DNA of 64,000 nt from Hemiscyllium ocellatum. Taxonomy: Eukaryota. The stretch lies in assembly GCF_020745735.1 (NCBI RefSeq), contig NW_026869102.1, positions 367 to 64,366 of the forward strand. The letters run 5' to 3'. The notes under the pieces were generated by a model. The model saw nothing but the letters and a program-made list of their open reading frames with translations, was not told the origin of the DNA and made no database searches. Of the stretch, positions 3,001-63,050 are shown in pieces. A program made the translations under genes and the position numbers. How positions within the stretch are numbered: position 1 is the stretch's first letter; every line of letters starts with the position of its first letter.

Positions 3001-6000
3001 TCCGTCACCCCCTAGACCCCCTCCCTATCTCCGTCACCCCTAGACCCCCTCCCTATCTCCGTCACCCCTAGACCCCCTCCCTATCTCCGTCACCCCCTAG
3101 ACCCCCTCCCTATCTCCGTCACCCCCTACACCCCCTCCCTATCACCGTAACCCCCTACACCCCCTCCCTATCTCCGTCACCCCTTCCCTATCTCTGTCAC
3201 CCCCTACACCCCCTCCCTATCACCGTCGCCCCCTACACCCTCTCCCTATCACCGTAACCCCCTCCCTATCACCGTCACCCCCTCCCTATCACCGTCACGC
3301 CCTACACCCCCTCCCTATCTCCGTCACCCCTAGACCCCCTATCACCGTCACCCCCTAGACCCCCTATCACCGTCGCCCCCTACGCCCCCTCCCTCTCTCT
3401 GTAACCCCCTACATCCCCTCCCTGTCCCTGTAACTCCCTACACCCCCTCCCTGTCCCTGTAACCCCTACACCCCCTCCCTGTCCCTGTAACCCCCTACAC
3501 CCCTCCCTGTCCCTGTAACCCCCTACACCCCCTCCCTGTCCCTGTAACCCCCTACACCCCCTCCCTATCACCGTCGCCCCCTACACCCCATCCCTATCTC
3601 CGTCACCCCTTCCCTATCTCCGTCACCCCCTAGACCCCCTCCCTATCTCCGTCACCCCTAGACCCCCTATCTCTGTAACCCCTCTACACCCCCTCTCTAT
3701 CTCTGTAACCCCCTACACCCCCTCCCTATCACCGTCACCCCTACACCCCCTCCCTATTACCGTAACACCCTACACCCCCTCCCTATTACCGTAACCCCCT
3801 CCCTATCACCGTCACCCCCTACACCCCCTCCCTATCACCGTAGCCCCCTCCCTATCACCGTCACCCCCTACACCCCCTCCCTATCTCCGTCACCCCCTAG
3901 ACCCCCTATCACTGTCACCACCTACACCCCCTCCCTATCACCATAACCCCCTAGACCCCCTCCCTATCTCCGTCACCCCCTAGACCCCCTATCACCGTCA
4001 CCCCCTAGACCCCCATCACCGTCGCCCCCTACGCCCCCTCCCTATCTCTGTCGCCCCTACGCCCCCTCCCTCTCTCTGTAACCCCCTACATCCCCTCCCT
4101 GTCTCTGTAACTCCCTACACCCCCTCCCTGTCCCTGTAACCCCCTACACCCCCTCCCTATCCCTGTAACCCCCCCACACCCCCTCCCTATCCCTGTAACC
4201 CCCCCACACCCCCTCCCTGTCCCTGTAACCCCCTACACCCCCTCCCTGTCCCTGTAACCCCCTACACCCCCTCCCTGTCCCTGTAACCCCCTACACCCCC
4301 TCCCTATCCCTGTAACCCCCCTACACCCCCTCCCTATCCCTGTAACCCCCCTACACCCCCTCCCTATCACCGTCGCCCCCTACACCCCCTCCCTATCTCC
4401 GTCACCCCTTCCCTATCTCCGTCATCCCCTAGACCCCCTCCCTATCTCCGTCACCCCTAGACCCCCTATCTCTGTAACCCCTCTACACCCCCTCCCTATC
4501 TCTGTAACCCCCTACACCCCCTCCCTATCACCGTCACCCCCTCCCTATCTCCGTCATCCCCTAGACCCCCTCCCTATCTCCGTCACCCCTAGACCCCCTA
4601 TCTCTGTAACCCCTCTACACCCCCTCCCTATCTCTGTAACCCCCTACACCCCCTCCCTATTACCGTAACCCCCTACACCCCCTCCCTATTACCGTAACCC
4701 CCTCCCTATCTCTGTAACCCCCTACACCCCCTCCCTATCCCTGTAACCCCCTACACCCCCTCCCTATCACCGTCGCCCCCTACACCCCCTCCCTATCTCC
4801 GTCACCCCTTCCCTATCTCCGTCATCCCCTAGACCCCCTCCCTATCTCCGTCACCCCCTAGACCCCCTATCTCTGTAACCCCTCTACACCCCCTCCCTAT
4901 TACCGTAACCCCCTACACCCCCTCCCTATCACCGTCACCCCCTACACCCCCTCCCTATCACCGTCACCCCCTCCCTATCACCGTCGCCCCCTACACCCCT
5001 TATCACCGTAACCCCCTACACCCCCTCCCTATCACCGTAACCCCCTCCCTATCACCGTCACCCCCTACACCCCCTCCCTATCTCCGTCACCCCCTAGACC
5101 CCCTATCACTGTCACCACCTACACCCCCTCCCTATCACCGTAACCCCCTAGACCCCCTCCCTATCTCCGTCACCCCCTAGACCCCCTCCCTATCTCCGTC
5201 ACCCCCTAGACCCCCTATCACCGTCGCCCCCTACGCCCCCTCCCTATCTCTGTCGCCCCCTACGCCCCCTCCCTCTCTCTGTAACCCCCTACATCCCCTC
5301 CCTGTCTCTGTAACTCCCTACACACCCTCCCTATCCCTGTAACCCCCTACACCCCCTCCCTATCCCTGTAACCCCCCTACACCCCCTCCCTATCCCTGTA
5401 ACCCCCCTACACCCCCTCCCTATCCCTGTAAACCCCTACACCCCCTCCCTATCCCTGTAACCCCCTACACCCCCTCCCTATCCCTGTAACCCCCCTACAC
5501 CCCCTCCCTATCCCTGTAACCCCCCTACACCCCCTCCCTATCCCTGTAACCCCCTACACCCCCTCCCTATCACCGTCACCCCCTACACCCCCTCCCTATC
5601 CCTGTAACCCCCTACACCCCCTCCCTATCACCGTCACCCCCTACACCCCCTCCCTATCCCTGTAACCCCCCTACACCCCCTCCCTATCCCTGTAACCCCC
5701 TACACCCCCTCCCTATCACCGTCACCCCCTACACCCCCTCCCTATCACCGTAACCCCCTCCCTATCACCGTCACCCCCTACACCCCCTCCCTATCTCCGT
5801 CACCCCCTACACCCCCTATCACCGTCACCCCCTAGACCCCCTATCACCGTCGCCCCCTACGCCCCCTCCCTATCTCTGTCGCCCCCTACGCCCCCTCCCT
5901 CTCTCTGTAACCCCCTACATCCCCTCCCTGTCTCTGTAACTCCCTACACCCCCTCCCTGTCCCTGTAACCCCCCCCACCCCCCCTCCCTGTCCCTGTAAC

Positions 6001-9404: not shown

Positions 9405-9960
9405 CACAGAGTCACAGAGATGTACAGCACGGAACACAGACCCTTCAGTCCGACCTGTCCGTGCTGACCCAGTTATCCCAACCCAATCCATTCCCACCTG
9501 CCAGCACCCGGCCTCTATCCCTCCAAACCCTTCCTATTCCTATACCCACCCAAACGCCCCTTAAATGTTGCAGTTGTACCAGCCTCCACCACTTCCTCTG
9601 GCAGCACATTCCATACACGTACAACCCTCTGGGTGAAAAAATTACCCCTTAGGTCCCTTTTATATCTTTCCCCTCTCACCCTAAACCTATGCCCCTCTAG
9701 TTCTGGACTCCCTGACCCTAGGGAACAGACTTTGCCAATTTACCCTATCCATGCCCCTCATGATTTTGTAAACCTCTATAAGGTCACCCCTCAGCCTCTG
9801 ACACTCCAGGGAAAACAGCCCCAGCCTGTTCAGCCTCTCCCTGTAGCTCAGATCCTCCAATCCTGGGAACATCCTTGTAAATCTTTTCTGAACCCTTTCA
9901 AGTTTCACAACACCTTTCCGACAGGGAGGAGACCAGAATTACACGCAATATTCCAACAGT
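9405..9960 (-). mobile_element. L2/CR1-clade LINE 3' end (RT C-terminus plus 3' tail)
   Basis: Minus ORF 9687..9908 encodes ...LGLFSLECQRLRGDLIEVYKIMRG..., the conserved C-terminal end of L2/CR1 ORF2. The tail motif tacagcacggaac/aacagacccttc..gtcc is shared with many other copies in this window. Confidence 0.7.
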
Positions 9961-18508: not shown

Positions 18509-19334
18509 GGTCTGTCAGGGCCTGTCCACTAGGGAGAGCACCTGGACAGAGGGGGGGGAGAGAGAGGGGGAGAGAGTGAGGGAGAGACTGACCACAGGGG
18601 GAGAGAGTGACCGCACGGAGAGTGGGGGAAGAGAGTGACCGCAGGGAGAGGGAGAGAGTGACCGCAGGGAGGGGGAAGAGAGTGACCACAGGGAGATTGT
18701 TCACACTATCACTGCAGTCACATGCCCAGCTCCTCAGGAAGGATCATTCCCCACACACGCCATTCTCGGAGTCAATCCTGCCATCAGGTCCAGGGGATTA
18801 ATCGGTCATTAGTTTCACCAACACCATTTCTCTCGTGATTATCATCCGATTTATTTCCTCTCCTCCTTGTCCCCTCGTTTACTGTGCCATTTCGGAACAC
18901 CGTTAGAAGACGGAGGTTACATATTTATTCGGCATCTTTCCAAGTTGCCCATTACTACTTCACCAGCTCCATTCCCTCAGGGAACTATGTTCACTTTGGC
19001 TCCTCTCTTTAAAGAAGCTCTTGCTGTTCAGTTTTGTATTACTTACTGGTTTGCTCTCATAGATAAAGAGGGAGAAAGGATGTTATTTTCTGCTCATAAT
19101 CCCAATGGAATTAGTGCGGTCAGTGGTGATACTCTTGGCAGCCAGTAATATCCCAGGCAGACAGTAATAATTCTGACATTTACTGGAGTGACAGTAATAA
19201 TCCTAACATAAATAATCCTGACAGTAATAGCCCTGAACAGAAATAGCAGACAGTAATAATTCTGATATTACCGGAGTGACAGTAATAATCCTAACAGGAA
19301 TAATCCTGACAGTAATGAGTGCTATGCCTGGGAA

Positions 19335-19700
19335 TTTATGTTGCGGACATTTTGTCCCCTGTCCAGGTGACATCCTCAGTGCTTGGGAGTCTCCTGTGAA
19401 GCGCTTCTGTGATCTTTCCTCCAGCATTTATAGTGATTTGTATCTGCCTCTTCCGTTGTCAGTCCCAGCTGTCCGCTGCAGTGGTCGGTATATTGGGTCC
19501 AGGTCGATGTGCTTGTTGATTGAATCTGTGGACGAGTGCCATGCCTCTAGGAATTCCCTGGCTGTTCTCTGTTTGGCTTGTCCCATTATATAGTAGTGTT
19601 GTCCCAGTCGAATTCACGTTGCTGGTCTTCTGCGTGTGTGGCTACTGAGGATAGCTGGTCGTGTCGTTTGGTGGCTAGTTGGTGTTCATGGATGTGTATA
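19335..19700 (-). mobile_element. Penelope-like element (PLE) 3'-terminal fragment
   Basis: It is the reverse complement of the 3' region of the PLE at 23.3-23.66 kb (compare ORF 23239..23589). It contains a degenerate hammerhead-like core CUGAGGAUG...GGGGAC.AAAAUG. Confidence 0.5.
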
Positions 19701-19701
19701 C

Positions 19702-19995
19702 ATGGTGGCACAGTGGTTAGCACTGCTGTCTCACAGCGCCGGAGACCCGGGTTCAATTCCCGCCTCAGGCGACTGACTGTGTGGAGTTTGCACGTTCTCC
19801 CCGTGTCTGCGTGGGTTTCCTCCGGGTGCTCCGGTTTCCTGCCATAGTCCGAAGATGTGCGGGGTCAGGTGAATGGGCCGTGCCAAATTGCCCGTAGTGT
19901 TGGGTAAGGGGTAAACGTAGGGGTAGGGGTGGGTGGCGGGTCGGCGTGGACTTGTTGGGCCGAAGGGCCTGTTTCCACACTGTAAGCAATCGAAT
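19702..19995 (+). mobile_element. tRNA-derived SINE (HE1-like)
   Basis: The head is tggtggcacagtggttagcactgctgtctcacagcgccggagacccgggttcaattcc and the tail is ...ggacttgttgggccgaagggcctgtttccacactgtaag. Confidence 0.75.
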
Positions 19996-20091
19996 ACACA
20001 TATTAGATGGGAAAGCAACCAGCCCAACACGCACAAAAGTTGCATCGGGACTCTGTTGAGGAGGGCTGCGGCACACCAGAACTGCAAAAAG

Positions 20092-20549
20092 ATTAGATTA
20101 GATTACTTGCACAGTGTGGAAACAGGCCCTTCGGCCCAACAAGTCCACGCCGACCCGCCACCCACCCCTACCCCTAACCTAACACTACGGGCAATTTAGC
20201 ACGGCCCATTCACCTGACCTGCACATCTTTGGACTGTGGGAGGAAACCCACGCAGACACGGGGAGAACGTGCAAACTCCGCACAGTCAGTCGCCTGAGTC
20301 GGGAATTGAACCCGGGTCTCTGGCGCTGTGAGGCAGCAGTGCTAACCACCGTGCCACCCCACCCCTACCCCTACATATACCCCTTACCTAACACTAGGGG
20401 CAATTTAGCACGGCCAATTCACCTGACCCCGCACGTCTTTGGACCGTGGGAGGAAACCCACGCAGAAGAACGTGCAAACTCCGCACAGCCGGTCGCCTGA
20501 GTCGGGAATTGAACCCCTGGTCCCTGGCGCCGTGAGGCAGCAGTGCTAA
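20092..20549 (-). mobile_element. two adjacent tRNA-derived SINE copies (one full at 20092-20352, one partial at 20353-20549)
   Basis: The reverse-complement tRNA-like head ...ggaattgaacccgggtctctggcgctgtgaggcagcagtgctaaccaccgtgccacc is present twice. Confidence 0.7.
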
Positions 20550-20930
20550 CCCACCGTGCCGAAGGGGAACACCTCTACAACGTATTCGCCAAAGGCGGAT
20601 ACCCGCGCAACTTCATCAACAGATGCCGCAGGGACGAGGGCACGCCGCAGGGACGAGGGCACGCCGCAGGGACGAGGGCACGCCGCGAGCCAAAGGGGCT
20701 GGCCACACTCCCATACATCAGGAGCATTTCTGAACTGACCGCCAGACCGCGGTGACCACTAGGACTCATAACAGCACCCAAACCAACAGCCACCCTCAGG
20801 CAGGCACCCACCCACTCACCAGGACAAGGGACCCACCACCCAGCATGAGCAACCCCAATGCAGTGGGCAACACCCCAGTGCAAGCACTGCCCAGCACAAC
20901 CAGGAAGACAGCTGACCAGCCCCACCCGTG
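20550..20930 (+). mobile_element. PLE fragment (RT-EN linker region)
   Basis: It encodes EHLYNVFAKGGYPRNFINRCRRDEG...PKGLATLPYIRSISELTARP, matching EHLYKVFAKNGYPRNFINRCL...PKGLATLPYIRSVSELTARL of the PLE at 22.9-23.1 kb. Confidence 0.45.
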
Positions 20931-20984
20931 ACTGACAGCTGCCTGGACCAATGGGAGCCACGGATCCCCGGGGCTGGGTGGGTG

Positions 20985-21495
20985 GGGCCACCGAGGTAGC
21001 CAATGGGCGGCGGAGGCCTCCAAGGAAGTGGGCGGGATTGATTGATTGATTGCGCGCATGCGCACATTACCGACGCCGATACGGCAAGACCGGTGACTGG
21101 CGACGGGGGTCTATCCAATCCGAGGGGAGAGGAGGGAAGCCAATGGGAAGCGAGGTTGGGGTCGGCGGCGCCTCAGAGGCCGGACGCGCGCGGAGTGTCG
21201 AATGGCCGCTGGGACACGTGATCAGCAATGAGGCATCCGACGAATGGGAAAAGCGGGCTCGCCTCCGATTGACGGGCGGCCGCACCAACCGGAGGCAGAG
21301 TCTGGGCAGGAGTAAAGGGGCGTTCCTGAGCTGAGCGGCCAATGAGAGCGGTGTGAGGATGTGGCGGAGGACCAATAGGATGAGGCGCTCGGGCCGGGAG
21401 GAGGGCGGGGCTTTGATCAGATTTAAATCGGGCGGCGGTTGGGAGGCGGGAGGCGGCTCGTTGTGTTTAAAATAGCAGCAAACAGGTAAAAACCG
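20985..21495 (+). promoter_or_regulatory. copy A of the KIF22-type CCAAT-cluster promoter plus exon-1 module (orphan copy)
   Basis: There are at least five CCAAT/ATTGG boxes, GC boxes (gggcgg), the palindrome gcgcatgcgc, an E-box cacgtg, and two TTTAAA elements. It ends in ...gtgtttaaaatagcagcaaacag|gtaaaaacc, an exon end plus splice donor. It is near-identical to the modules at 50.09-50.6 and 59.8-60.3 kb. Confidence 0.45.
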
Positions 21496-22155
21496 GCCTT
21501 TTCCTGGTGTTATTTATTGTATCGCTTCCTCGGGCAGCTCTCTGCACCTTCTCCGCGTGAAAAAGTTGTTCCTTTGTAAATGTTTGACCTTTGACCCTCT
21601 GGTTCTTGCCCACTGACCCCCCCATGACCCTATAAACCTCTATAAGGTTATCCCTCAGCCTCCCCCCTTCAGCTCAAACCCTCCAACATCCTTGTGAACC
21701 TTTCCCCTCTCACCCTTAACCTGTGACCCTCTAGTTTTGTCCTCCCTCACCACCCCCTGAGGGATAATACCTTGACCCTTCACCTTATCCATGACCCCCA
21801 TGACCCTATTAACCTCTATAGGGTCATCCCTCAGCCTCTTCCCTTCAGCTCAGACCCTCTAACATCCTTGTGAACCTTTCCCCTTCCCACCATGAACCTG
21901 TACCTCTAGAGTCATAGAGATGTACAGCACGGAAACAGACCCTTCGGTCCAACCTGTCCGTGCTGACCCAGTTATCCCAACCCAATCCATTCCCACCTGC
22001 CAGCACCCGGCCTCTATCCCTCCAAACCCTTCCTATTCCTATACCCACCCAAACGCCCCTTAAATGTTGCAGTCGTACCAGCCTCCACCACTTCCTCTGG
22101 CAGCTCATTCCATACACGTACAACCCTCTGGGTAAAAAAGTTACCCCTTAGGTCC
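21496..22155. repeat. copy of KIF22 intron-1 proximal sequence with internal about 100 bp tandem repeats and an L2 3' tail
   Basis: It is the reverse complement of 49.49-50.09 kb. It contains the motif tacagcacggaaacagacccttcggtcc. Confidence 0.5.
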
Positions 22156-22159
22156 CTTT

Positions 22160-23660
22160 TATATCTTTTCCCCTCTCACCCTAAACCTATGCCCTCTAGT
22201 TCTGGGCTCCCTGACCTTACAGAACAGACTTTGCCTATTGACCCTATCCATGCCCCTCATTATTATGTAACCCTCTATAAGGTCACCCCTCAGCCTCTGA
22301 CGCTCCAGGGAAAACAGCCCCAGTCTGTTCAGCGTCTCCCCGTAGCTCCGATCCTCCAATCCTGGGAACATCCTTGTAAATGTAGTGAGGCATAAGTCCA
22401 GTAGTTTAAGTATGCCGTCTTTGTTGATAGGTTCCGCCTCCTGTTTTCTGCTATGTATGTCCAGTAGGTTGTCCACTACACACTTTACATTCAACAATCA
22501 GATATACGAACAAATCAACGGAACACCCATGGGATCACCAATCGCGGGACTCATAGCAGAGGCAGTTATGCAAAGGTTAGAACAAACAGCCCTACCACAA
22601 ATTCAACCCAAAGTCTGGGTCAGATATGTCGATGACACTTTCGTAATCATCAAAAACACGGAAATAGAAAAAACACACTGGATCATCAACGCCACACTCT
22701 CAGGCATCCGATTCACGAGAGAAGTAGAAAAGGATAGCCAACTCCCATTACTAGACGTGATAGTACAGAGAACACCAAACGGAGAATTCACCACAAGGGT
22801 ACACAGGAAAACAACACACACAGACCAAGTCCTAAACTATGAAAGTAACCACTCCAACACACACAAACGAAGCTGCATCAGGACACTATTCAAAAGAGCG
22901 ACAACACACTGCAGTACACCAGAACTGCGAAAAGAGGAAGAGGAACACCTATACAAGGTATTCGCCAAAAACGGATACCCGCGCAACTTTATCAACAGAT
23001 GCCTAAGAGAGAGACCACGGAACGAGGACATGCCACAACCAAAAGGACTAGCCACACTACCATACATCAGGAGCGTTTCAGAACTGACAGCCAGACTACT
23101 GCGACCCCTAGGACTCATAACGGCACACAAACCAACAGCCACGCTCAGACAACAACTTACTAGAACAAAGGAGCCAATACCCAACATGAGCAAAACTAAT
23201 GTAGTTTATAAAATACCATGCAAGGACTGCACAAAACACTATATAGGACAAACAGGAAGACAGCTAACAACCCGCATACATGAACACCAACTAGCCACGA
23301 AACGACACGACCAACTATCCCTAGTAGCCACACACTCCGACAACAAGCATAATGAATTCGACTGGGAAAACACTACTATCACAGGGCAAGCCAGACAGAG
23401 AACAGCCAGGGAATTCCTAGAGGCATGGCATTCATCCACAAATTCCATCAACAGACACATCGACCTGGACCCAATATACCAATCACTACAGCGGACAGCT
23501 GAAACTGACACCTGGAAGCGGCAAGGACAGACCACTATAAATGCCGGAAGAAACATCAAAGAAGCGCTTTGCAGGAGGCTCCACAGCACTGATGAGGTCT
23601 CCTAGCCAGGGGACGAAACGTTTGCAACAAAAACTTCCAGCTCGGCGAACAGAACCACTA
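22160..23660 (+). mobile_element. Penelope-like retroelement, 3' half (RT C-terminal part plus GIY-YIG endonuclease plus 3' tail)
   Basis: ORF 22385..23605 carries the RT motif YVDDTFVI and the GIY-YIG motif VVYKIPCKDCTKHYIGQTGRQLTTRIHEH. The GIY-YIG endonuclease is the hallmark of PLEs. Confidence 0.8.
23586..23626 (+). ncRNA. hammerhead ribozyme motif in the PLE 3' region
   Basis: CUGAUGAG at about 23589-23596 is followed by helix II GUCUCC..GGGGAC, then GAAAC at about 23615 and GUUUGC. This matches the HHR core. PLEs are known to carry HHRs. Confidence 0.45.
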
Positions 23661-24939
23661 CAGTTTGGAAGTGTTGCAGCCAAGTGATTAAAGGCCTGTT
23701 TTTGCAAACCTATTGTGTTCACTCTTCATTATCATTTGTGCTGTCACAGGGTGGGAGTAGGAGAAAGGTTTGGACAAGGTGGTGAGGGGAGACCCACCCT
23801 CTGAGATAACTGATGGGGAGCAACTAGGCCCTGGGGAAGTCAAACCACATTGACAGCAGGACTGACAGCCTGTGCTGCTGCTCAGCTAGTGTAGCTCCAA
23901 CACTGGCAGTGACCCAGTGGGGTGGTCAGCTATGTCCTTATATACAAAAAGCAGGACCGTTACTGCCCCTTCACTCTCCTCTTAACCATCCCCAATGTTA
24001 GCAATGCCAGGGCCACTCAGCTCAGTTGTGTTTCTGTGGATGACTCCACACTATGTTCCCATCAGTGTGCAGCAAAGATTGGCAGAGCTGTGGACAAGTT
24101 TCACTGGCCATTTAATGGTACAACAAGTTTTAATAAAGGATTTGCTAAAGACAAGAAACAAATGGTTAAAATACAATAGCAGTGACATGTGAGCTGAGGT
24201 GGAAATATACATTCTCAGCTCCATTCCATTCTGACAAGATTCATACTTTAATAACAAAGGAGAAGCCAGCTCTGAAACACTGATTGCTAATGGCCAGGAG
24301 GAAGGTTTAGACAGCAAACTAACAACAGGGGCCCTGACAGGCTCCCCCTCTCAGTCTGATGATTCCGTATGACCCCGTACAAAGCAGACACAGCACAGGC
24401 AGAGGGAAGAACAAGGACTGGAGATCGGAGTCGAGTGTTGGTAAAGTGGATGAACTGTTCAACCTCCAGGTATTCACCTCCCCATACAGCTCATCACATT
24501 GGCCTAGGGAATGGGCAATATAAGAATAGTTATTCAGTAAAAAGGTTTGGTTTTGATCATCACTGTCTGTTCAGTCGGGTGTGGGTCACCTCAATAGGAA
24601 CAGTATAGTAGGAGGCTATTCAGCCCTTTGAGCCTGATCTACCATTCAATATGAACATGTCTGACCATCCATCTCTGTCCCTGCTGTCTCACAACATTCC
24701 CCACCCCCCCTCCCCCCTCAGCACCAAGAGCTCCATCGGAATACTATCCCCTCGTTCACACATTCCATAGTGTAGCCTCAGCAGCTTCCTGGGACAGGAT
24801 TCCACAGGCTCCACCACTTTCTGGGGAAAGAGGCTTCTCCCCATTTCAGATCGGTAACACAATGACCTCTGGTTTCAGATTCCTGATCGGGAAGGTCCTG
24901 TGTTTATCCTGTCGGGTCCTGTTGGAGGTTTATAGGATC

Positions 24940-35129: not shown

Positions 35130-37700
35130 AATGGTTGGTGCAGGTTCCAGCATTTAGATGTTTCAGTGAGAACAGAGAAGATGGTAAAAGAGGGGGAGGT
35201 GTGGCATTGTTGGTCAAAGACAGTATTACAGTTGCAGGAATGATGTTTAGGGACTCGTCAACTGAGGTAGTATGGGCTGAGGTTAGAAACAGGAAAGGAG
35301 AGGTCACCCTGTTGGGAGTTTTCTGTATATCGCCAATGAGAGAGCGAGAGCGACTATAGAGGAGTCAGTTTTTGTCCAGTGTGTGCAGGAGGGTTTCCTG
35401 ACAGTGTGTAGACAGGCCAACAAGGGGTGAGGCCACATTAGATTTGGTACTGGGTAATGAGCCCAGCCAGGTGTTAGACTTGGAAGTAGGTGAGCACTTT
35501 GGTGATAGCGATCACAATTCTGTTATGTTTACTGTAGTGATAGAAAGGGATAGGTGTATACCTCTGGGCAAGAGCTACAGCTGGGGGAAAGGCAATTACA
35601 ATACGATTAGGCAAGATTTAGGAAGCACAGGATGGGGGAAGGAACCTGCAGAGGATAGGCACGTTAGAAAGGTGGAGCTATTCAAGGAAATGCTCCTGTG
35701 TGTCCTAGATAGGTATGTACCTGTCAGACAGGGAGGAAGCTGTAGAGCACAGGAGCCATGGTTTACAAAGGAAGTGGAATCTCTGGTCAAGAGAAAGAAG
35801 GCAGCTTATGTTAGGATGAGATGTGAAGGCTCAGTTAGGGCACTTGAAGGTTACAAGGTAGCCAGGAAAGAACTAAAGAGAGAGCTCAGAAGAGCCAGGA
35901 GGGGACATGAGAAGTTGTTGGTGGATAGGATCAGGATAAACCCGAAGGCTTTCTATAGGTATTTAAGGAATGAAAAGAATTCCGAGTGTTAGATTACGGC
36001 CTATCAAGGAGAGTAGTGAGAAGCTGTGTGACGAGTCAGGGGAGTTAGGGAAAGCACTAAATGAATATTTTTCGACAGTATTCACTCGAGAAAATGACAA
36101 TATTGTAGAGGAGAATACTGAGATACAGGCTACTAGACTAGGTGGGATTGAGGTTCACGAGGAAGAGGTATTAGAAATCCTGCAGTGTGTGAAAATAGAT
36201 AAGTCCCCTGGGCCGGATGGGTTTTATCCTAGGATCATCTGGGAAGCCAGGGAGGAGATTGCCGAGCCTTGGGCATTGATCTTTAAATCGTCATTGTCTA
36301 CAGGAATAGTGCCAGAAGATTGTAGGAGAGCAAATGTGGTTCCCCTGTTCAAGAAGGGGAGTAGAGACAACCCTGGTAATTATAGACCAGTGAGCCTCAC
36401 TTCAGTTGTTGGTAAAGTGTTGGAAAAGGTTAGAAGAGATAGGATTTATAATCATCTAGAAAAGAATTTGATTAGGGATAGTCAGCACAGTTATGTGAAG
36501 GGTAGGTCGTGCCTCACAAACCTCATTGAGTTCTTTGAGAAGATGACCAGACAGGTAGATGAGAGTAAACCGGTTGATGTGGTGTATATGGATTTCAGCA
36601 AGGCGTTCGATAAGGTTCCCCACAGTCGGCTGTTGTACAAATTGCGGAGGAATGGGATTGTGGGAGATACAGTAGTTTGGATCAGTAATTGGCTTGCTGA
36701 AAGAAGACAGAGGGTGGTGGTTGATGGGAAATGTTCATCCTGGAACTCAGTTACCAGTGGTGTACCGTAAAGGTCGGTGTTGGGTCCACTGCTGTTTGTC
36801 ATTTTTATAAACGACCTGGTTGGCAGTATAGAAGGGTGGGTTAGTAAGTGTGCAGGTGACACCAAGGTCGGTGGAGTTGTGGATAGTGCTGAAGAATGTT
36901 GTAGGTTACAGAGAGGCATAGATAAGCTGCAGAGCTGGTCTGAGAGGTGGAAAATGGAGTTTAATGCAGACAAACATGAGGTGATTCACTTCGGTGGGAG
37001 TAACCGGAATGCAAAGTACTGGGTGAATGGTAAGATTCTTGGTCGTGTCGATGAGCAGAGAGATCTGTGTCCAGGTAATGTTCTATGTTCGACATGTTTG
37101 CCTTTGTTGGTCAAAGCACCGAGTGCAGAAGTTGGCACGTTGCGGCTGGACCGGACATTGGTGAAGCTACTTTTGGAGTACTGCATACAATTCTGGTTGC
37201 TGTTATAGGAAGGATTGTGTAAAGTACAGAAACAAATTTACCAGCATGTTACCTGAATGGAGGATTTGAATTATAAGGAGAGATGGGATGGGCTGGGACT
37301 TTTTCACTGGGAGACAGAAAGATTGAGGACTGACCTTAGGGGTATTTAAGGTTATGAGGGACACAGACAAGGTGAGTAGCAACAGTCTTGCCCATAGTGC
37401 AGGGGAGTACAAAACCAGAGGGCATCGGCTTAAGGTGGGTATGGAGAGATTCCAAAAGGGACAACTTCACCCCCACTCCACAGAGAACGGTGTGGATATG
37501 GAATGAACTGCGAGAGGCCGTGGTAAATGCAGACACAGTTACAATATTTCAGAGACATTTACACAGGTACGTGAATGGGAAAGGTTCCGAGGGATGTGGG
37601 TAAGGTACAGGCAGATTGGTAAACGCGATCAGTGTGGAGGAGTTGGACAGAAGGGTTTGACAACTCAGTGCCGGGTTGGAGATGATCAGGCCCGGAGCAT
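35130..37700 (+). mobile_element. near-full-length L2/CR1-clade LINE (APE endonuclease plus RT), frameshifted, inside a KIF22 intron
   Basis: ORFs 35135-35992 encode the endonuclease (GGGVALLVKDSITV..., EVTLLGVFCISP). ORFs 35970-37208 encode the RT (..PGPDGFYPRIIWEAREEIAEPWALIFKSSL.., ..VYMDFSKAFDKVPHSRLL.., [20 protein letters not shown].., ..WQMEFNADKHEV..). The 3' tail ends ..ELREAVVNADTV. Confidence 0.75.
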
Positions 37701-43499: not shown

Positions 43500-45150
43500 A
43501 ATATCCCTACTTAGAGTCAGAGAGATGGACAGCACGGAAACAGACCCTTCGCTCCATCCCGAACAAATAGCCTAACCTAATCTCGTCCCATTTGTCAGCA
43601 CTAGGCCCATTTGCCTCAAACCCTTCCTATTCATATACCCATCCAGATGCCTTTTAAAATGCTCCAATCGTACCAGCCTCCACCACTTCCTCTGGCAGCT
43701 CATTCCATACATGCATCATCCTCTGGCTGAAACAGTTGCCCCTTAGATCCCTTTTATATCTTTCCCCTCTCACCCGAAACCGCTGACCTCTAGTTCTGGA
43801 CTCCTCCATCCCAGGGAAAAGACTTGGCCTATTACCCCTATCCACACCCATCGTGATTTTATAAACCTCCATAAAGTCACCCCTTCAGTCTCCGACGCTC
43901 CAGGGGAAACAGCCCCACCTATTCAGCCTTTCCCTACAGCTCAAACCCTGGCAACATCCATCTTTCCAATAGGAAGGAGATCAGAACTGCATGCAATATT
44001 CCAACAGTGGCCTAACCAATGTCCTGTCCAGCCACAACATGACCCTCCCAACTCCTATACTTAACACTCTGCCCTACAAAGGAAAGCATACCAAACACCT
44101 TCTTCACTATCCTATCCACTTGGGACCCCACTTTCAAGGAGCTATGAACCTGCACTGTTGTTCTACAACACTCTTGGACCTTACCATTAAGCGTATAAGT
44201 CCTGCTAAGATTTGCTTTCCCCAAAATGCAGCACCTCACGTTTACCCAAGTTAAACTCCATCTGCCACTCCTCAGCCCATTGGCCCAGCTGATCAAGATC
44301 CCATTGTAATCTGAGGTAACCTACTTCACTGTCCACTACACCTCCAATTATGGTGTCACCATCCAACTATACCTCCTACGTTCACATCCAAATCATTTAT
44401 ATAAATGCCGAAAAGTAGTGGTCCCAGCACCGATCCTTGTGGCACTCCACTGGGCACAGGCATCCAGTCTGAAAAACAACCCTCCACCACCACCCTCTGT
44501 CTTCTCCCTTCAAGCCTGTTCTGGATCCAAATGGCTAGTTCTCCCTGTATTCCATGAGATCTAACCTTGCTAACCAGTCTCCCATGGGGAACCTTGGGAA
44601 ACACCTTACTGAAGTCCATATAGATCACGTCCACTGCTCTGCCCTCCTTTGGGACCAACAGGCCTGGGTTCAAATCCCACTTGTCCCAGAAACTTTTATT
44701 AGCGCCTCTGAACAAGCGAATTACCAAACATTGAACCAAATACTAAAATGTACAAGCAAAATTAAGTAAGAGCATGTTAAGGTCAAAATGTTAGTGGATG
44801 GGGAACTGATGAGCCCCAGCCAGAAGCCAGCTCTTAAATACAACTTACTCTTGATCAACTCTGGAGCTATTCCGGCATACCTTTCAAACAAACATCACTT
44901 CCAGGCCGACACTCTCTGGATGGAGGTGAAGGGAGGAGTCTGCTGGCTTGCAACGCTGAGCGATACCAACAGCATGTCCCAATCTCTCTCCACAGGAACG
45001 TTTTCCCAAGCCTCCACAACCCAGCCCAGAGTGACCAGATGTTTCAGGATTAAATTCCATCTGCCACTTCTCTGCCAAGTCTCCACCCTATCCATCTATC
45101 TATTTATCTCTATCCCACTGAATCCTTTGGCCATCTCAGGATGGTGAGGA
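43500..45150 (-). mobile_element. L2-clade LINE fragments (3' end at 43500-43980, RT plus 3' portion at 43990-45150) in KIF22 intron 1
   Basis: Minus ORFs 43654..43872 (..MEVYKITMGVDRGN..), 44012..44296, 44356..44739 ([50 protein letters not shown]...[21 protein letters not shown]), and 44895..45095. Confidence 0.65.
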
Positions 45151-47929: not shown

Positions 47930-49480
47930 TGAGTTTTTTTGAAGAAACAACAAAGAAGACTGATGATGGCAGAGCAGTAGATGTGATCTATATGGACTCC
48001 AGTAAGGCGTTCGACAAGGATCCCCATAGGAGACTGATTAGCAAGGTTAGATCTCATGGAATACAGGGAGAACTAGCCATTTGGATACAGAACTGGTTCG
48101 AAGGTAGAAGACAGAGGGTGGTGGTGGAGGCTTGGGAAAACATTCCCGTGGAGAGCGATTGGGACATGCTGTTGGTATCGCTCTGCGTTGCAAGCCAGCA
48201 GACCCCTCCCTTCACCTCCATCCAGAGAGTGTCGGCCTGGAAGTGATGTTTGTTTGAAAGGTATGCCGGAATAGCTCCAGAGTTGATTGAGAGTAAGTTG
48301 TATTTAAGAGCTGGCTTCTGGCTGGGGCTCATCAGTTCCCCATCCACTAACATTTTGACCTTAACATGCTCTTACTTACATTTGCTTGTACATTTTAGTA
48401 TTTGGTTCAATGTTTGGTAATTCACTTGTTCAGAGGCGCTAATAAAAGTTTCTGGGACAAGTGGGATTTGAACCCAGGCCTGTTGGTCCCGAAGGAGGGC
48501 AGAGCAGTGGACGTGATCTATATGGACTTCAGTAAGGTGTTTCCCAAGGTTCCCCATGGGAGACTGGTTAGCAAGGTTAGATCTCATGGAATACAGGGAG
48601 AACTAGCCATTTGGATCCAGAACTGGCTCAAAGGTAGAAGACAGAGGGTGGTGGTGGAGAGTTGTTTTTCAGACTGGAGGCCTGTGACCAGTGGAGCGCC
48701 ACAAGGATCGGTGCTGGGCCCTCTACTTTGTCATTTACGTAAATGATTTGAATGCGAGCATAAGAGGTACAGTTAGTAAGTTTGCAGATGATACCAAAAT
48801 TGGAGGTGTAGTGGACAGCAAAGAGGGTTACCTCAGATTACAACAGGATCTGGACCAGGTGGGCCAATGGGCTGAGAAGTGGCAGATGGAGTTTAATTCA
48901 GATAAATGTGAGGTGCTGCATTTTGGGAAAGCAAATCTTAGCAGGACTTATACACTTAATGGTAAGGTCCGAGGGAGTATTGCTGAACAAAGAGACCTTG
49001 GAGTGCAGGTGCATAGCTCCTTGAAAGTGGAATTGCAGGGAGATAGGATAGTGAAAACGTTTGTAATGCTTTCCTTTATTGGTCAGAGTATTGAGTACAG
49101 GAGTTGGGAGATCATGTTGCGGCTGTGCAGGACATTGGTTCGGCCACTGTTGGAACTGCGTGCAATTCTGGTCTCCTCCCTGTCAGAAAGACATTGCGAA
49201 ACTTGAAAGGGTTCAGAAAAGATTTACAAGGATGTTGCCAGGATTGGAGGATCTGAGCTACAGGGAGAGGCTGAACAGGCTGGGGCTGTTTTCCCTGGAG
49301 GGTCAGAGGCTGAGGGGTGACCTTATAGAGGTTTACAAAATTATGAGGGGCATGGATAGGAGAAATAGACCAAGTCTGTTCAATAGGGTCAGGGAGTCCA
49401 GAACTAAAGGGGCATAGGTTTAGGGTGAGGGGGGAAAAGGTATAAAAGGGACCTAAGGAGGTAACTTTTTTACCCAGAGG
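47930..49480 (+). mobile_element. L2-clade LINE RT plus 3' end fragment
   Basis: ORFs 47929..48246, 48402..48746 and 48691..49206 (..DDTKIGGVVDSKEGYLRLQQDLDQVGQWAEKWQMEFNSDKCEVLHFGKANLSRTYTLNGK..), and 49079..49417 (..LGLFSLEGQRLRGDLIEVYKIMRGMDR). Confidence 0.7.
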
Positions 49481-54959: not shown

Positions 54960-57125
54960 TCAGCAGTGATAATACCCCTTCTCACCATCCTGAGATGGCC
55001 AAAGGATACAGTGGGATAGAGATAAATTCAAAGTTTGGGAGTAGATTTGTAGCTCGGGTACTCGTTGTGGTTCTGTTCGCTGAGCTGGGAGTTTGTGTTG
55101 AAAACTACTGACACCCAGAAGCGGCAGAGACAAGCCACTATAAATGCCGGAGGAAACATCACAGAAGCGCTTCATAGGAGGCTCCCAAGCACTAAGGATG
55201 TCACCTAGAAAGGGGACGAAACATTTGCAACACAAACTCCCAGCTCAGCTAACAGAACCACAACGAGCACCCGAGCTACAAATCTTCTCCCAAACTTTGA
55301 ACACCTACGGGCGAGAGACGCCAAGACAAGCCAGGAAATGGGAATCCTATGCCAACCACCTAAGCCCCACACACGAACAACTCCAGTTCCTGCATCAACG
55401 CTGAAGGATGAGAATCCTTCCACCATGTGTCAGATACAGACCACCAGTCAACAATTCACAAGCCAGGGACACAGCCAGACAGAACGGACTCAGGATGATC
55501 CAGGTAATGATTCCAGACGCTCACAGACTTCACAAATACAGACAAGAAATTGCACACCAAAAATCATTAATTTCAAAAACCACCAATCAGGAATGGACCC
55601 AGACCGTAGAACAGGCCGTAGTACCAAACAGGACTACACACCACATAAAAACAGTGCTAAAAGAAAAGTGGCCAAACTAACAACGAAGACACCACAACAC
55701 ACACCTGGGTTAAAAACCTCTCCCACAGACACGGAAAGAACAATACTGGCCAAGGGACTCAACTACAACCACAGGAACACCAAGACAGCAGACTTCCTAG
55801 CAGCACTAGAATGCACACTCGGGAACAATGGATTGACAGAAGAGACACCAAACAGCGAGACAAAGTATCGTACCTCTGATAACAAGGAAAAGACACTCTC
55901 AACACCAAGGAGAGAGAAGTACTAAAATCACTAAGAAATGATAGGAACGTAATCGTGCTGCCAGCAGACAAAGGCAGAATGACAGTCATACTGGACAAAG
56001 CAGAGTACATCCAAAAGGCACAACTACTTGCAGATACCAACATCTACCCAAAGAGAGAGTCTGACCCCACCCCACAGCTCACCAATAGGATAAACACACT
56101 GAGGAATCTACAAAAAAACGGACAGATAACCAGGTCTGACCTACAAAGAATGAAACCGGAAAGGAACACCACCCCCAGATTCTATGGACTACCTAAAGTA
56201 CACAAACCAGACATCCCACTCAGACCCATAGTATCACTACCAGGGACACCATCACACAAACTGGCTAAAGAGCTACAGCAGAAACTGAAACACCTGATCA
56301 GCAGATCCAAACAATCTATACAATCAACAGGAATTCTTGGACATCAGAAATATACACAGACAAGGAAGAAACCATGGTCTCATTCGATGTAATGGCACTG
56401 TTCACCTCTATCGACAAAACCCTAGCCAGAGAAACAATATCCAACCTGCAGGACATACAGAACAGACAACAGGACGTTGAACCTATTAACAAAGACGGCA
56501 TACTTAAACTACTGGACCTGTGCCTCACAACACACTTCACATTCAACAACCAGATATACGAACAAATCAACAGAACACCCATGGGCTCACCGATCTCTGG
56601 ACTCACAGCAGAAGCAGTAATGCAAAGGTTAGAACAAACAGTCTTACTGCAAATACAACCCAAACTCTGGGTCAGATATGTGGGTGACACCTTTGTAATC
56701 ATTAAAAACAGAAATAGAGAACACACACCGGATCATCAACGCCACCCTCACAGGAATCTGATTCACGAGAGAGGAAGAAAAGGACAAACAGCTCCCATTC
56801 CTAGACGTGATGGTACAGAGAACACCGAATGGAGAATTCACTACAAAGGTATACAGGAAAGCCACACACACAGACTAAGTCCTGAACTATGAAAGCAACC
56901 ACCCCAACCCACACAAACAAAATTGCATCAGGACACTATTCAAAAGGGCCACAACATGCTGCAGCACACCAGAACTACAAAAAGAGGAACACAAGGTATT
57001 CACCAAAAACAGATACTCGCACAATTTCATCAACAGATGCCTAAGGGAGAGACAACGGAACGAGGACATGCCGCAACCCAAGTTGAAAGGGTTCTAAAAA
57101 GATTTGAAAGATATAAAGGGACCTA
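54960..57125 (+). mobile_element. degenerate Penelope-like element (3' tail of one copy at 54960-55300, then an RT region with frameshifts)
   Basis: ORFs 55955..56892 encode ..HFTFNNQIYEQINRTPMGSPISGLTAEAVMQRLEQTVLLQIQPKLWVRYVGDTFVIIKN.., the PLE RT (compare 22.4-22.7 kb). At 55.17-55.22 there is a mutated hammerhead-like core (CUAAGGAUG). Confidence 0.6.
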
Positions 57126-57129
57126 AGGG

Positions 57130-57360
57130 GCAACTGTTTCACCCAGAGGGTGATGCATGTATGGAATGAGCTGCCAGAGGAAGTGGAGGAGGCTGGTACG
57201 ATTGGAACATTTAAAAGGCATCTGGATGGGTATATGAATAGGAAGGGTTTGAGGCAAATGGGACAAGATTAGGTTAGTCTATTTGGTCAGGATGGACTGA
57301 AGGGTCTGTTTCCGTGCTGTACATCTCTGACTCTAAGTAGGGATATTACTAGTAATCAAA
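57130..57360 (+). mobile_element. L2 3' tail
   Basis: ..ggaagtggaggaggctggtacgattggaacatttaaaaggcatctggatgggtatatgaataggaagggtttgag...gtctgtttccgtgctgtacatctctgactc. It is the reverse complement of 43500-43700, so it belongs to the inverted duplication. Confidence 0.6.
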
Positions 57361-60339: not shown

Positions 60340-62060
60340 ACTGTACACTACACCCATTATGGTGTCACCATCCAACTATATCCCCTACATTCACATCCAA
60401 ATCATGTATATAAATGACAAATTAGTGGACCCAGCACCGATCCTTGTGGCGCTCCACTGGGCACAGGCCTCCAGTCTGAACAACAACTCTCCACCACCAC
60501 CCTCTGCCTTTCCCTACAGCTCAAACCCTGGCAACATCCATCTTTCCAATAGGAAGGAGATCAGAACTGCATGCAATATTCCAACAGTGGCCTAACCAAT
60601 GTCCTGTCCAGCCACAACATGACCCTCCCAACTCCTATACTTAACACTCTGCCCTACAAAGGAAAGCATACCAAACACCTTCTTCACTATCCTATCCACT
60701 TGGGACCCCACTTTCAGGGAGCTATGAACCTGCACTGTTGTTCTACAACACTCTCGGACCTTACCATTAAGCGTATAGGTCCTGCTAAGATTGGCTTTCC
60801 CCAAAATGCAGCACCTCAAGTTAAACTCCATCTGCCACTCCTCAGCCCACTGGCCCAGCTGATCAAGATCCCATTGTAATCTGAGGTAACCTACTTCACT
60901 GTCCACTACACCTCCAATTATGGTGTCACCATCCAACTATACCTCCTACGTTCACATCCAAATCATTTATATAAATGCCGAAAAGTAGTGGACCCAGCAC
61001 CGATCCTTGTGGTGCTCCACTGGGCACAGGACTCCAGTCTGAACAACAACCCTCCACCGCCACCCTCTGTCTTTCCCTACAGCTCAAACCCTGGCAACAT
61101 CCATCTTTCCAATAGGAAGGAGATCAGAACTGCATGCAATATTCCAACAGTGGCCTAACCAATGTCCTGTCCAGCCACAACATGACCCTCCCAACTCCTA
61201 TACTTAACACTCTGCCCTACAAAGGAAAGCATACCAAACACCTTCTTCACTATCCTATCCACTTGGGACCCCACTTTCAAGGAGCTATGAACCTGCACTG
61301 TTGTTCTACAACACTCTCGGACCCTACCATTAAGCGTATAGGTCCTGCTAAGATTTGCTTTCCCCAAAATGCAGCACCTCACGTTTACCCAAGTTAAACT
61401 CCATCTGCCACTCCTCAGCCCATTGGCCCAGCTGATCAAGATCCCATTGTAATCTGAGGTAACCTACTTCACTGTCCACTACACCTCCAATTATGGTGTC
61501 ACCATCCAACTATACCTCCTACGTTCACATCCAAATCATTGATATAAATGCCGAAAAGTAGTGGACCCAGCACCGATCCTTGTGGCACTCCACTGGGCAC
61601 AGGCCTCCAGTCTGAAAAACATCTCTCCACCGCCACCCTCTGTCTTTCCCTACAGCTCAAACCCTGCCAACATCCATCTTTCCAATAGGAAGGAGATCAG
61701 AACTGCATGCAATATTCCAACAGTGGCCTAACCAATGTCCTGTCCAGCCACAACATGACCCTCCCAACTCCTATACTTAACACTCTGCCCTACAAAGGAA
61801 AGCATACCAAACACCTTCTTCACTATCCTATCCACTTGGGACCCCACTTTCAAGGAGCTATGAACCTGCACTGTTGTTCTACAACACTCTCAGACCTTAC
61901 CATTAAGCGTATAGGTCCTGCTAAGATTGGCTTTCCCCAAAATGCAGCACCTCACGTTTACCCAAGTTAAACTCCATCTGCCACTCCTCAGCCCATTGGC
62001 CCAGCTGATCAAGATCCCATTGTAATCTGAGGTAACCTACTTCACTGTCCACTACACCTC
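60340..62060 (-). repeat. tandem triplication (about 573 bp unit) of an L2 3'-end fragment
   Basis: Identical ORFs recur with a period of about 570 bp: 60571, 61134 and 61707 on plus, and 60592 and 61155 on minus (..FGKANLSRTYTLNGKVRECCRTTVQVHSSLKVGSQVDRIVKKVFGMLSFVGQSVKYRSWEGHVVAGQD = L2 RT C-terminal region). The boundary motif gtcactgtccactacacctccaattatggtgtcacc occurs at about 60340, 60895, 61468 and 62035. Confidence 0.8.
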
Positions 62061-62069
62061 CAATTATGG

Positions 62070-63050
62070 TGTCACCATCCAACTATACCTCCTACATTCA
62101 CATCCAAATCATTTATATAAATGCCGAAAAGTAGTGGACCCAGCACCGATCCTTGTGACACTCCACTGGGCACAGGCCTCCAGTCTGAAAAACAACTCTC
62201 CACCACCACCCTCTGTCTTCTCCCTTCAAGCCTGTTCTGGATCCAAATGGCTAGTTCTCCCTGTATTCCATGAGATCTAACCTTGCTAACCAGTCTCCCA
62301 TGGGGAACCTTGGGAAACACCTTACTGAAGGCCATATAGATCACGTCCACTGCTCTGCCCTCCTTCGGGACCAACAGGCCTGGGTTCAAATCCCACTTGT
62401 CCCAGAAACTTTTATTAGCGCCTCTGAACAAGCGAATTACCAAACATTGAACCAAATACTAAAATGTACAAGCAAAAGTAAGTAAGAGCATGTTAAGGTC
62501 AAAATGTTAGTGGATGAGCCCCAGCCAGAAGCCAGCTCTTAAATACAACTTACACTCGATCAACTCTGGAGCTATTCCGGCATACCTTTCAAACAAACAT
62601 CACTTCCAGGCCGACACTCTCTGGACGGAGGTGAAGGGAGGAGTATGCTGGCTTGCAACGCAGAGTGATACCAACAGCATGTCCCAATCTCTCTCCACAG
62701 GAACATTTTCCCAAGCCTCCACCACCACCCTCTGTCTTCTACCTTCGAACCAGTTCTGTATCCAAATGGCTAGTTCTCCCTGTATTCCATGAGATCTAAC
62801 CTTGCTAATCAGTCTTCTATGGGGATCCTTGTCGAACGCCTTACTGGAGTCCATATAGATCACATCTACTGCTCTGCCATCATCAGTCTTCTTTGTTGCT
62901 TCTTCAAAAAACTCAATCAAGTTTGTGAGACAGGATTTCCCACGCACAAAGCCATGCTGACTATCCCAAATCAGTCCTTGCCTTTCCAAAGACATGTACA
63001 TCCTGTCCCTCCTCATTCTCTCTAATTTTGTCTTCCCTCACCTTGTCCTG
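62070..63050 (-). mobile_element. L2 RT fragment continuous with the tandem array
   Basis: Minus ORFs 62072..62455 and 62600..63016 (..[79 protein letters not shown]..). Confidence 0.7.

Follow-up and report, generated by a model that had tools for sequence, protein, structure and literature searches.

Identity and coding content of the element

Does the open reading frame (ORF) at 22385..23605 on the plus strand of a stretch of the genome of the epaulette shark Hemiscyllium ocellatum belong to a mobile element, and does this element carry a genuine hammerhead ribozyme at its 3' end? The stretch (64,000 nucleotides (nt) of RefSeq assembly GCF_020745735.1, contig NW_026869102.1, positions 367 to 64,366; hereafter the window) had been described in an earlier note, made from the letters alone, as harboring a recently active Penelope-like element (PLE) with reverse transcriptase (RT), GIY-YIG endonuclease and a canonical hammerhead core. 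All strings and coordinates cited there were found again. The best overall explanation, to which we assign a probability of roughly 85%, is that the locus is a dead-on-arrival copy of a canonical PLE with C-terminal endonuclease, bearing the minimal type-I hammerhead of its family.

Judged by its sequence, the interval 22381-23661 (copy A) is a 5'-truncated PLE. The ORF encodes 406 amino acids (aa). It contains the RT motifs FTFNNQIYEQ (22484), GTPMGSP (22520) and YVDD (22625-22636), and the GIY-YIG core VVYKIPCKDCTKHYIGQTGR at 23201-23260 is followed by RIHEH at 23273-23287. Homologues and Pfam agree with this assignment of both domains. A database search with the ORF returned 555 homologues, several of which match RVT_1 as well as GIY-YIG. 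The ORF itself matches RVT_1 with an E-value of 8.2e-7 and 29.4 bits, just below the cut-off of 29.6, because only profile positions 109-169 of 205 are present, and it matches GIY-YIG weakly (E 0.021). The endonuclease residues Y, C, Y-G-T-G, E-H, R and E are unchanged across 15 relatives, and two cysteines between GIY and YIG form, together with HEH, the CCHH signature of PLE endonucleases. A CCHH motif with both cysteines in this position defines the C-terminal GIY-YIG endonuclease of PLEs (PMC8557442).

The description of the ORF as an RT-GIY-YIG fusion needs to be narrowed. Both domains are present, but the first 30 codons are not PLE coding sequence and lie in an inverted segment, and sense PLE homology begins only around 22474. 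From there the remnant is open across 377 codons, with no frameshift and no stop. The RT consists of the C-terminal half alone, from motif 4 to its end. Copy A is 57% identical to a full-length PLE ORF of 705 aa (P0008) and spans only residues 347-697 of it; it lacks residues 1-~346, so the N-terminal domain and RT motifs 1-3 are gone. Within the window we found no full-length or autonomous PLE copy, since copy A is truncated and a further copy, E, covers residues ~81-571 with frameshifts.

The closest homologues come from orectolobiform sharks, namely Chiloscyllium (84-86% identity), Rhincodon (69%) and Stegostoma (61-64%), followed by marine metagenome contigs (57-60%) and PLE-like proteins of flatworms (44-55%). 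The nearest named relatives outside the sharks are thus trematodes and cestodes (Opisthorchis, Clonorchis, Trichobilharzia, Sparganum, Spirometra; 44-55%) and not other vertebrates, a pattern that could stem from database sampling or from horizontal transfer between parasites and hosts. A Zn-finger-like linker motif, CX2-5CxxC, occurs in Neptune and Nematis PLEs (PMC8557442), and no such motif was readable in the linker of copy A (residues 150-272). This one character suggests that the element is Penelope/Poseidon-like.

A minimal hammerhead motif spans the end of the ORF

The hammerhead motif of copy A reads CTGATGAG-GTCTCC-TAGCCA-GGGGAC-GAAAC at 23589-23619 (elements in Table 1). It retains the full set of 11 invariant nucleotides of the core, the G10.1-C11.1 pair and a cleavable U17. 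Rather than directly following the stop codon, as had been supposed, the motif overlaps the end of the ORF: the last 13 codons supply helix I and the core, and the TAG at 23603-23605 sits inside loop 2. The term canonical applies to the catalytic core, which is intact, but not to the whole structure, in which helix I has 3 base pairs (bp), an extra nucleotide follows A9 and helix III is absent in cis, with A15.1-C15.2 joined directly to G16.2-U16.1. The ACGU formed at this joint is self-complementary and part of an 8-nt palindrome, AAACGUUU, so that helix III is possible only between two copies.

This layout corresponds to a known class. Metazoan PLE minimal hammerheads have a helix II that is long, a helix I that is short, a conserved base separating position 9 from 10.1, a G10.1-C11.1 pair, palindromic positions 15.2/16.2 and no loop 3 (PMC4209133); minimal PLE hammerheads have also been attributed to Lunse, Weinberg and Breaker (2016), as cited in PMC6765202. 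Copy A shares with the examples from Schistosoma (Cercyon), fish (Xena, Poseidon, Neptune), coelacanth and Xenopus the CUGANGA and GAAA boxes, the unpaired nucleotide, the G10.1-C11.1 pair, a helix II of 6-7 bp, the short helix I and the missing loop 3. As in those genomes, the motif belongs to the PLE terminal repeat, and most genomic copies are single and reside in truncated PLEs. It differs in its orectolobiform host, in a helix I of 3 bp versus 4-5 bp, and in the overlap of the shark family motif with the stop and the C-terminal codons of the ORF. Canonical type-I hammerheads (Hammerhead_1, RF00163; HH9, RF02275; Schistosoma Sm-alpha, newt satellite) have in common with copy A the 11-nt core and the type-I topology with open helix I. 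Unlike copy A, they possess a helix III hairpin and loop 1-loop 2 contacts, and have no extra nucleotide after A9. From these features the motif of copy A is very probably a genuine member of the minimal PLE class. A predicted distal stem closing helix I (GGAGG/CUUCC) was dropped as a candidate feature, being present in copy A and in the related loci L001 (Chiloscyllium) and L003 (Stegostoma tigrinum) and not in L004 (a TARA scaffold) or L006 (Chiloscyllium punctatum).

The motif is conserved and covaries across PLE families

A purpose-written, strict descriptor of minimal hammerheads that demands pairing gave one match in the window and none in 300 dinucleotide shuffles, which places the motif beyond chance. 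We applied the descriptor to 87 loci, comprising 80 metagenomic loci gathered by endonuclease-domain homology alone, six loci around homologous proteins and the window. Here, 29 matches fell on the endonuclease-coding strand versus 4 on the opposite strand, and at least three of these four duplicate, in inverted orientation, a plus-strand hammerhead of their own locus. The same layout, in which A9 is followed by an unpaired nucleotide, G10.1 pairs with C11.1 and helix II is long, recurs in 24 aligned PLE hammerheads. Across helices I and II of this alignment 89% of the cells are paired, a percentage inflated by the choice of the set with a pairing-demanding descriptor, and 81 double-sided changes were counted versus 25.5 in shuffles.

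Two covariance models were built, R1 from all 24 motifs and R2 from 17 distant metagenomic PLE hammerheads, without any shark sequence. R1 scores copy A with 44.1 bits (E 6e-10), and R2, with 30.4 bits (E 1.5e-5), ranks it as the top match in the window; the E-values of both models are rough.

Among the sharks, the copies from Chiloscyllium (L001, L005, L006) and Rhincodon (L002) read CUGAGGA-U-GUCACC...GGGGAC-GAAAC-GUU. The strings CUGAGGAU and CUGAGGAUG represent this family consensus, which is a valid core with G at N7, since CUGAGGA fits CUGANGA and the following U is unpaired. Compared with the hemiscylliid consensus, copy A has changed at N7 (G to U), in the bulge (U to G), in loop 2, in the flanks and at position 10.4 (A to U). 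The last change turns an A.G mismatch of the consensus into a U.G pair, and the more distant L004 has an A-U pair there. The catalytic positions of copy A are all untouched despite 14-16% divergence from the Chiloscyllium and Rhincodon copies. The third pair of helix I covaries within the shark family, being G-C in copy A, U-A in L003 and C-G in L006. Overall, five of six independent copies (from Chiloscyllium, Stegostoma and the TARA scaffold) have kept their core nucleotides unchanged, at protein identities down to ~57%, and the sixth (L006 at 523) deviates solely by C15.2 to U.

Two further hammerhead copies in the window provide a comparison. The core of copy B at 55192 reads CTAAGGATG; that of copy C, which lies on the minus strand at 19.38 kb, reads CTGAGGATG. 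Copy B has exchanged G5 for A (CUAAGGA) and G16.2 for A, while copy C carries G12 to A (CAAAAU) and in addition C15.2 to U and U1.1 to C. R2 scores them with 15.7 bits (E 0.18) and 12.3 bits (E 1.7), respectively. We conclude from G5 to A and G16.2 to A in copy B, and from G12 to A in copy C, that both hammerheads are catalytically dead. The contrast of intact and decayed copies drawn in the earlier note thus stands, although CUGAGGAUG, which had been counted as damage, is no lesion, and the true lesions are those named here.

Cleavage competence and alternative explanations

Besides the inflated paired percentage, several points weigh against a functional minimal hammerhead. With 3 bp, helix I is below the typical 4-5 bp (2 bp in D. 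virilis), and an intermolecular helix III of 4 bp would be weak. Cofolding with ViennaRNA gave a minimum free energy (MFE) structure with a domain-swapped helix II and not a hammerhead dimer; the monomer MFE structure retains helix I, helix II and the distal stem, yet pairs core nucleotides. These folds say nothing either way, as the hammerhead core is not captured by energy models. Metazoan PLE minimal hammerheads are weakly active in vitro, and their action as dimers was inferred (Cervera and De la Pena, 2014, PMC4209133). In PAc, a Poseidon element of Anolis carolinensis, insertion did not need cleavage and no RNA-seq ends map to the cut site (PMC11167929). Finally, Rfam gave no hits in the whole window at the gathering threshold and no hammerhead match in 23400-23800 at E<=10. 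A match to the Rfam hammerhead models had been proposed as a check, but this negative says little about the minimal class: Rfam likewise finds no hammerhead in nine control loci that bear clear minimal PLE hammerheads, so the result excludes only the canonical class, covered by the Rfam models Hammerhead_1, HH9, HH10, II and 3, and the purpose-built covariance models do match. Rfam-based scans miss minimal PLE hammerheads, and a negative in such a scan does not equal the absence of a ribozyme.

Cleavage by the PAc hammerhead was shown to be protein-assisted and is lost with C3G or G8C (PMC11167929). PAc and the shark element both have an RT and GIY-YIG ORF, tandems with a pseudo-long terminal repeat (pseudo-LTR), a hammerhead overlapping an ORF boundary and an optional tail of 30-40 bp that marks alternative RT start sites. 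The PAc hammerhead lies at the ORF start and cuts 26 nt past the ATG, whereas the shark hammerhead lies at the ORF end; shark-type hammerheads are, unlike that of PAc, located ~250 nt (copies B/E) to ~320 nt (L004) upstream of the ORF start of the next unit. By analogy with these systems, the motif would process pseudo-LTR-containing tandem transcripts of active master copies, cutting after U17 (PMC4209133; PMC6765202; PMC11167929). Cleavage would need a second copy pairing in trans, for example two pseudo-LTR copies, or the protein of the element itself. Whether the exact sequence of copy A would cut detectably under such dimer or protein-assisted conditions is, to our judgment, evenly balanced. 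At the locus itself neither a partner hammerhead nor the 5' part of the element is present, and the motif is therefore most likely an inert young relic; any role of it at this locus is very unlikely.

Might the block be conserved for reasons other than RNA cleavage? It could be retained because it encodes the C-terminal tail of the ORF (..EALxRRL..), or because the RT binds or initiates there, with the hammerhead-like core as a by-product. The overlap with the final 13 codons and the peptide ALHRRL/ALCRRL, conserved in three shark families, would fit, as would the observations in Anolis that RT initiation sites lie near the junction of ORF and pseudo-LTR and that hammerhead mutants still insert (PMC11167929). 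However, the core is also kept where the coding context differs, as in L004, where it lies 445 nt past the stop. L003 and L005 lack the loop-2 TAG, and their frame continues through the motif. Distant PLE families with unrelated flanks keep the boxes, the bulge and helix II, with compensatory changes, and the substitutions in copy A spare every catalytic position. We consider a purely coding or RT-binding constraint improbable. It is likewise unlikely that the motif is a chance or relic structure, inactive even in master copies, and that shark minimal hammerheads are fossils of an ancestral ribozyme. This idea draws on the low in vitro activity of metazoan minimal hammerheads, the 3-bp helix I, the A.G mismatch in helix II of the hemiscylliid consensus and the mutations in two of the three window copies. 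Against it speak the 300 shuffles without a descriptor match and the core that remained intact in five of six independent copies despite protein divergence; moreover, the mutated copies (B/E and C/F) are those that are also frameshifted or rearranged.

A different proposal would take the ORF for a domesticated host gene and the hammerhead for a regulatory ribozyme in the 3' untranslated region (UTR) or close to the stop. Indeed, the ORF is 100% identical to an annotated H. ocellatum protein, LOC132813914 (358-406 aa), so NCBI lists a protein-coding gene here; moreover, the frame is unbroken and the ratio of nonsynonymous to synonymous substitution rates (dN/dS) is below 1. Yet the ORF lacks the N-terminal domain and RT motifs 1-3, an inverted fragment forms its 5' end and no orthologous locus was found. 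Since the copies compared are paralogues inserted between different flanks, dN/dS records the selection that acted on active elements and not on the copy A locus. Domestication is barely credible on these grounds, and LOC132813914 should be annotated as a truncated PLE remnant and not as a host gene. The preferred reading remains that of a dead-on-arrival PLE copy with the minimal hammerhead of its family.

Ends, 5' inversion and age of copy A

The structure of the 5' end was resolved by comparison with copy E. By blastn, 22381-22471 aligns in reverse with 56532..56442, and 22474-23043 aligns directly with 56526-57081. The minus strand of the first interval encodes the RT stretch ..LLDIHSRKQEAEPINKDGILKLLDLCLTT / ..EAEPINKDGILKLLDLCLTT, matching residues ~58-89 of the homologue P0002, and in intact relatives this stretch sits directly upstream of HFTFN. 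A minus-strand match at 22381-22488 was also obtained by tblastn. At the inversion junction ~7 nt (CACTACA) are common to both sides.

In LINE-1, a long interspersed nuclear element (LINE), 5' inversions arise by twin priming. The topology of copy A resembles their outcome, with an antisense piece of the adjacent upstream segment, a sense segment reaching the 3' end and a few shared nucleotides at the junction; a mechanism of the twin-priming type would be our proposal by analogy. The pair of fragments C and F shows the same topology, but differs from LINE-1 in that an 865-bp palindromic spacer parts the two. The element also differs in being a PLE, with an enzyme that nicks both strands and extends them (PMC11167929).

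A target-site duplication, or the other half of an interrupted repeat, was looked for around copy A and not found. Adjoining the 5' end of the PLE is an abundant, unrelated interspersed repeat (22101-22381). Further copies of it lie at 9602-9882, 49222-49480 (minus strand) and 43696-43942, and there are weaker ones at 21.7, 49.8 and 59.4 kb. The repeat continues differently in the other copies, which places the PLE junction at 22380/22381. On its minus strand it encodes ..LGLFSLERQRLRGDLIEGYIIMRGMDRV.., which we take to resemble the C-terminus of a CR1/L2-type LINE ORF2. At the 3' end, homology to other copies ceases at 23661, where copy A ends without the optional tail. Three independent copies stop at this same base (window 23661, L001 4448, L005 3902). 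Where PLE families have inverted copies within one locus, homology stops 45-51 nt past the predicted cut.

Copy A differs by 14-17% of nucleotides from every other copy found. Compared with the Chiloscyllium copies, dN/dS is 0.22-0.24 at a dS of 0.31 (375 aligned codons, frame unbroken). The low dN/dS and the open frame imply that most of the divergence arose in functional lineages and that copy A has been decaying relatively briefly. These values fit a fairly young, undated insertion; the other two insertions in the window are clearly old. Truncation and rearrangement of its 5' end made copy A dead on arrival. The claim that the family was recently active in this genome could not be upheld in that form: copy A was dead on arrival and is 14-17% distant from other copies, and only dN/dS (~0.22) and the open frame argue for youth. 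Judging from the sequences, recent activity of the family is plausible, yet unproven.

Other PLE insertions in the window

The window contains three PLE insertions, formed by copy A, by C and F, and by D, B and E (Table 1). The further PLE fragments listed earlier, the last of them at ~55.6-57.15 kb on the plus strand, were all recovered. Together they make the window a compact example of PLE anatomy in a cartilaginous fish, with a tandem, an inverted copy, a tail, 5' inversions and intact versus dead cores.

Table 1. Features of the PLE insertions and of the hammerhead motif in copy A (window coordinates)
Feature	Position	Strand	Basis or remark
Minimal type-I hammerhead motif of copy A	23586..23625	+	Direct reading, descriptor, covariance models
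Helix I, GCA with UGC	23586-88 with 23623-25	+	3 contiguous pairs, then A.A
Core C3 U4 G5 A6 U7 G8 A9 (CUGAUGA)	23589-95	+	
Extra unpaired G between A9 and G10.1	23596	+	
Helix II, GUCUCC with GGGGAC	23597-602 with 23609-14	+	6 bp including one G.U; possible seventh pair U-A
Loop 2, UAGCCA	23603-08	+	Holds the TAG stop codon
G12 A13 A14 A15.1 (GAAA)	23615-18	+	
C15.2 G16.2 U16.1 U17	23619-22	+	U16.1 = 23621, U17 = 23622
Predicted cleavage	Between 23622 and 23623	+	Motif reading
3'-terminal 39 nt of copy A, downstream of predicted cut	23623..23661	+	Homology end common to copies
Sense PLE coding remnant of copy A	22474..23605	+	RT from motif 4 on, linker, GIY-YIG, TAG stop 23603-23605
Inverted 5' segment of copy A (91 bp)	22381..22471	-	blastn, minus-strand translation, tblastn
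Copy C: endonuclease C-terminus (A-equivalent 23275-23640) and decayed hammerhead 19338-19387	19328..19694	-	blastn, 83% to A
Fragment F: linker region (A-equivalent 22937-23276)	20555..20941	+	blastn/tblastn, 71% nt identity
Fragment D: inverted 3'-terminal piece, head to head with B	55027..55104	-	blastn, B query 95-172, 95% identity
Copy B: upstream pseudo-LTR, last ~33 ORF codons, decayed hammerhead 55184-55233, 3'-terminal segment, tail	55107..55301	+	blastn
Copy E: 5' UTR and ORF of tandem unit after B, 3'-truncated at ~57151	55302..57151	+	tblastn, 85% nt identity to A

The breakpoints of C and F agree within ~3 nt (A-equivalent 23275/6) on opposite strands, which marks them as two halves of one rearranged insertion. 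Their spacer (19695-20560) is an 865-bp near-perfect palindrome of repeats resembling short interspersed nuclear elements and containing GGGTTCAATTCCCGCC; its arms are 19704-19823/20239-20358 (96%) and 19918-19983/20111-20176 (100%). ARAGORN found no transfer RNA over 19-24 kb.

In PLEs, a partial tandem typically forms a pseudo-LTR, often next to an inverted 5'-truncated copy, and a tail of 30-40 bp is optional (PMC8557442, PMC11167929). D, B and E represent a textbook case of this arrangement; copy A is a solo truncated copy. B and D carry the tail of 37 bp (55265-55301), A, L001 and L005 lack it, and in L006 it stands alone and inverted. By tblastn of P0008, copy E was followed at 55713-57151 through frames 3, 2, 1 and 2, with at least three frame changes.

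Fragment D spans from within 2-3 nt of the predicted cut (relative start -2/-3) to the end of the tail. One could read it as the cDNA of a 3' hammerhead cleavage product, inserted head to head with B. If true, it would be a genomic footprint of minimal hammerhead cutting in vivo, and a short cleaved 3' fragment that still has the RT initiation site could serve as template. We regard this origin as improbable. A start at the cleavage site is not general, as seven other inverted copies in related loci begin 25-113 nt upstream of the cut, and that of fragment D is an isolated case, a single coincidence. The hammerhead class has been known since 2014 and nothing conceptually new is added to it here, unless fragments anchored at the cleavage site, such as D, prove to be a genome-wide pattern.

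A complete relative is available in L004 (TARA_SAMEA2731702_METAG-scaffold_7324), which has a PLE ORF of 705 aa, 57% identical to the shark element. Its ends carry a terminal redundancy of 55 nt with 100% identity (1-55 = 2881-2935), corresponding to a tandem or circular unit of 2880 nt. The hammerhead lies between ORFs, 445 nt past the stop and ~320 nt before the next ORF start, so that the overlap of hammerhead and stop is a family-specific detail and not a constraint. Short tandem repeats occupy the interval between stop and hammerhead in L004.

Further observations concern the surroundings and the related loci. In L006, a second family of minimal hammerheads, CUGAUGA-a-GGGC-UUUU-GCCC-GAAAC-GUC with a 4-bp helix II, occurs at 2626 (plus strand) and 4401 (minus strand) as an inverted pair flanking the PLE remnant, and is probably part of another PLE or retrozyme family. 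In L003, Rfam reports a sub-threshold match to mir-3202 (42.8 bits versus a gathering threshold of 90, E 2.9e-6) at 4266-4362, a short way past the PLE tail; it is probably a repeat-derived hairpin. In the window, the GC-rich region 20950-21480 contains CCAAT-box-like motifs (ccaatggg, gccaatggg, ggccaatgag, gaccaatagg) and a TTTAAA element, and by these motifs looks like the CpG-island promoter of a host gene between two PLE insertions. Weak tblastn matches from a few of 120 PLE-like proteins were obtained at 36750-37187 (plus), 44214-44457 (minus), 48684-49059 (plus) and 60658-62173 (minus), and these four regions probably hold RT pieces from other retroelement families or reflect chimeric gene models.

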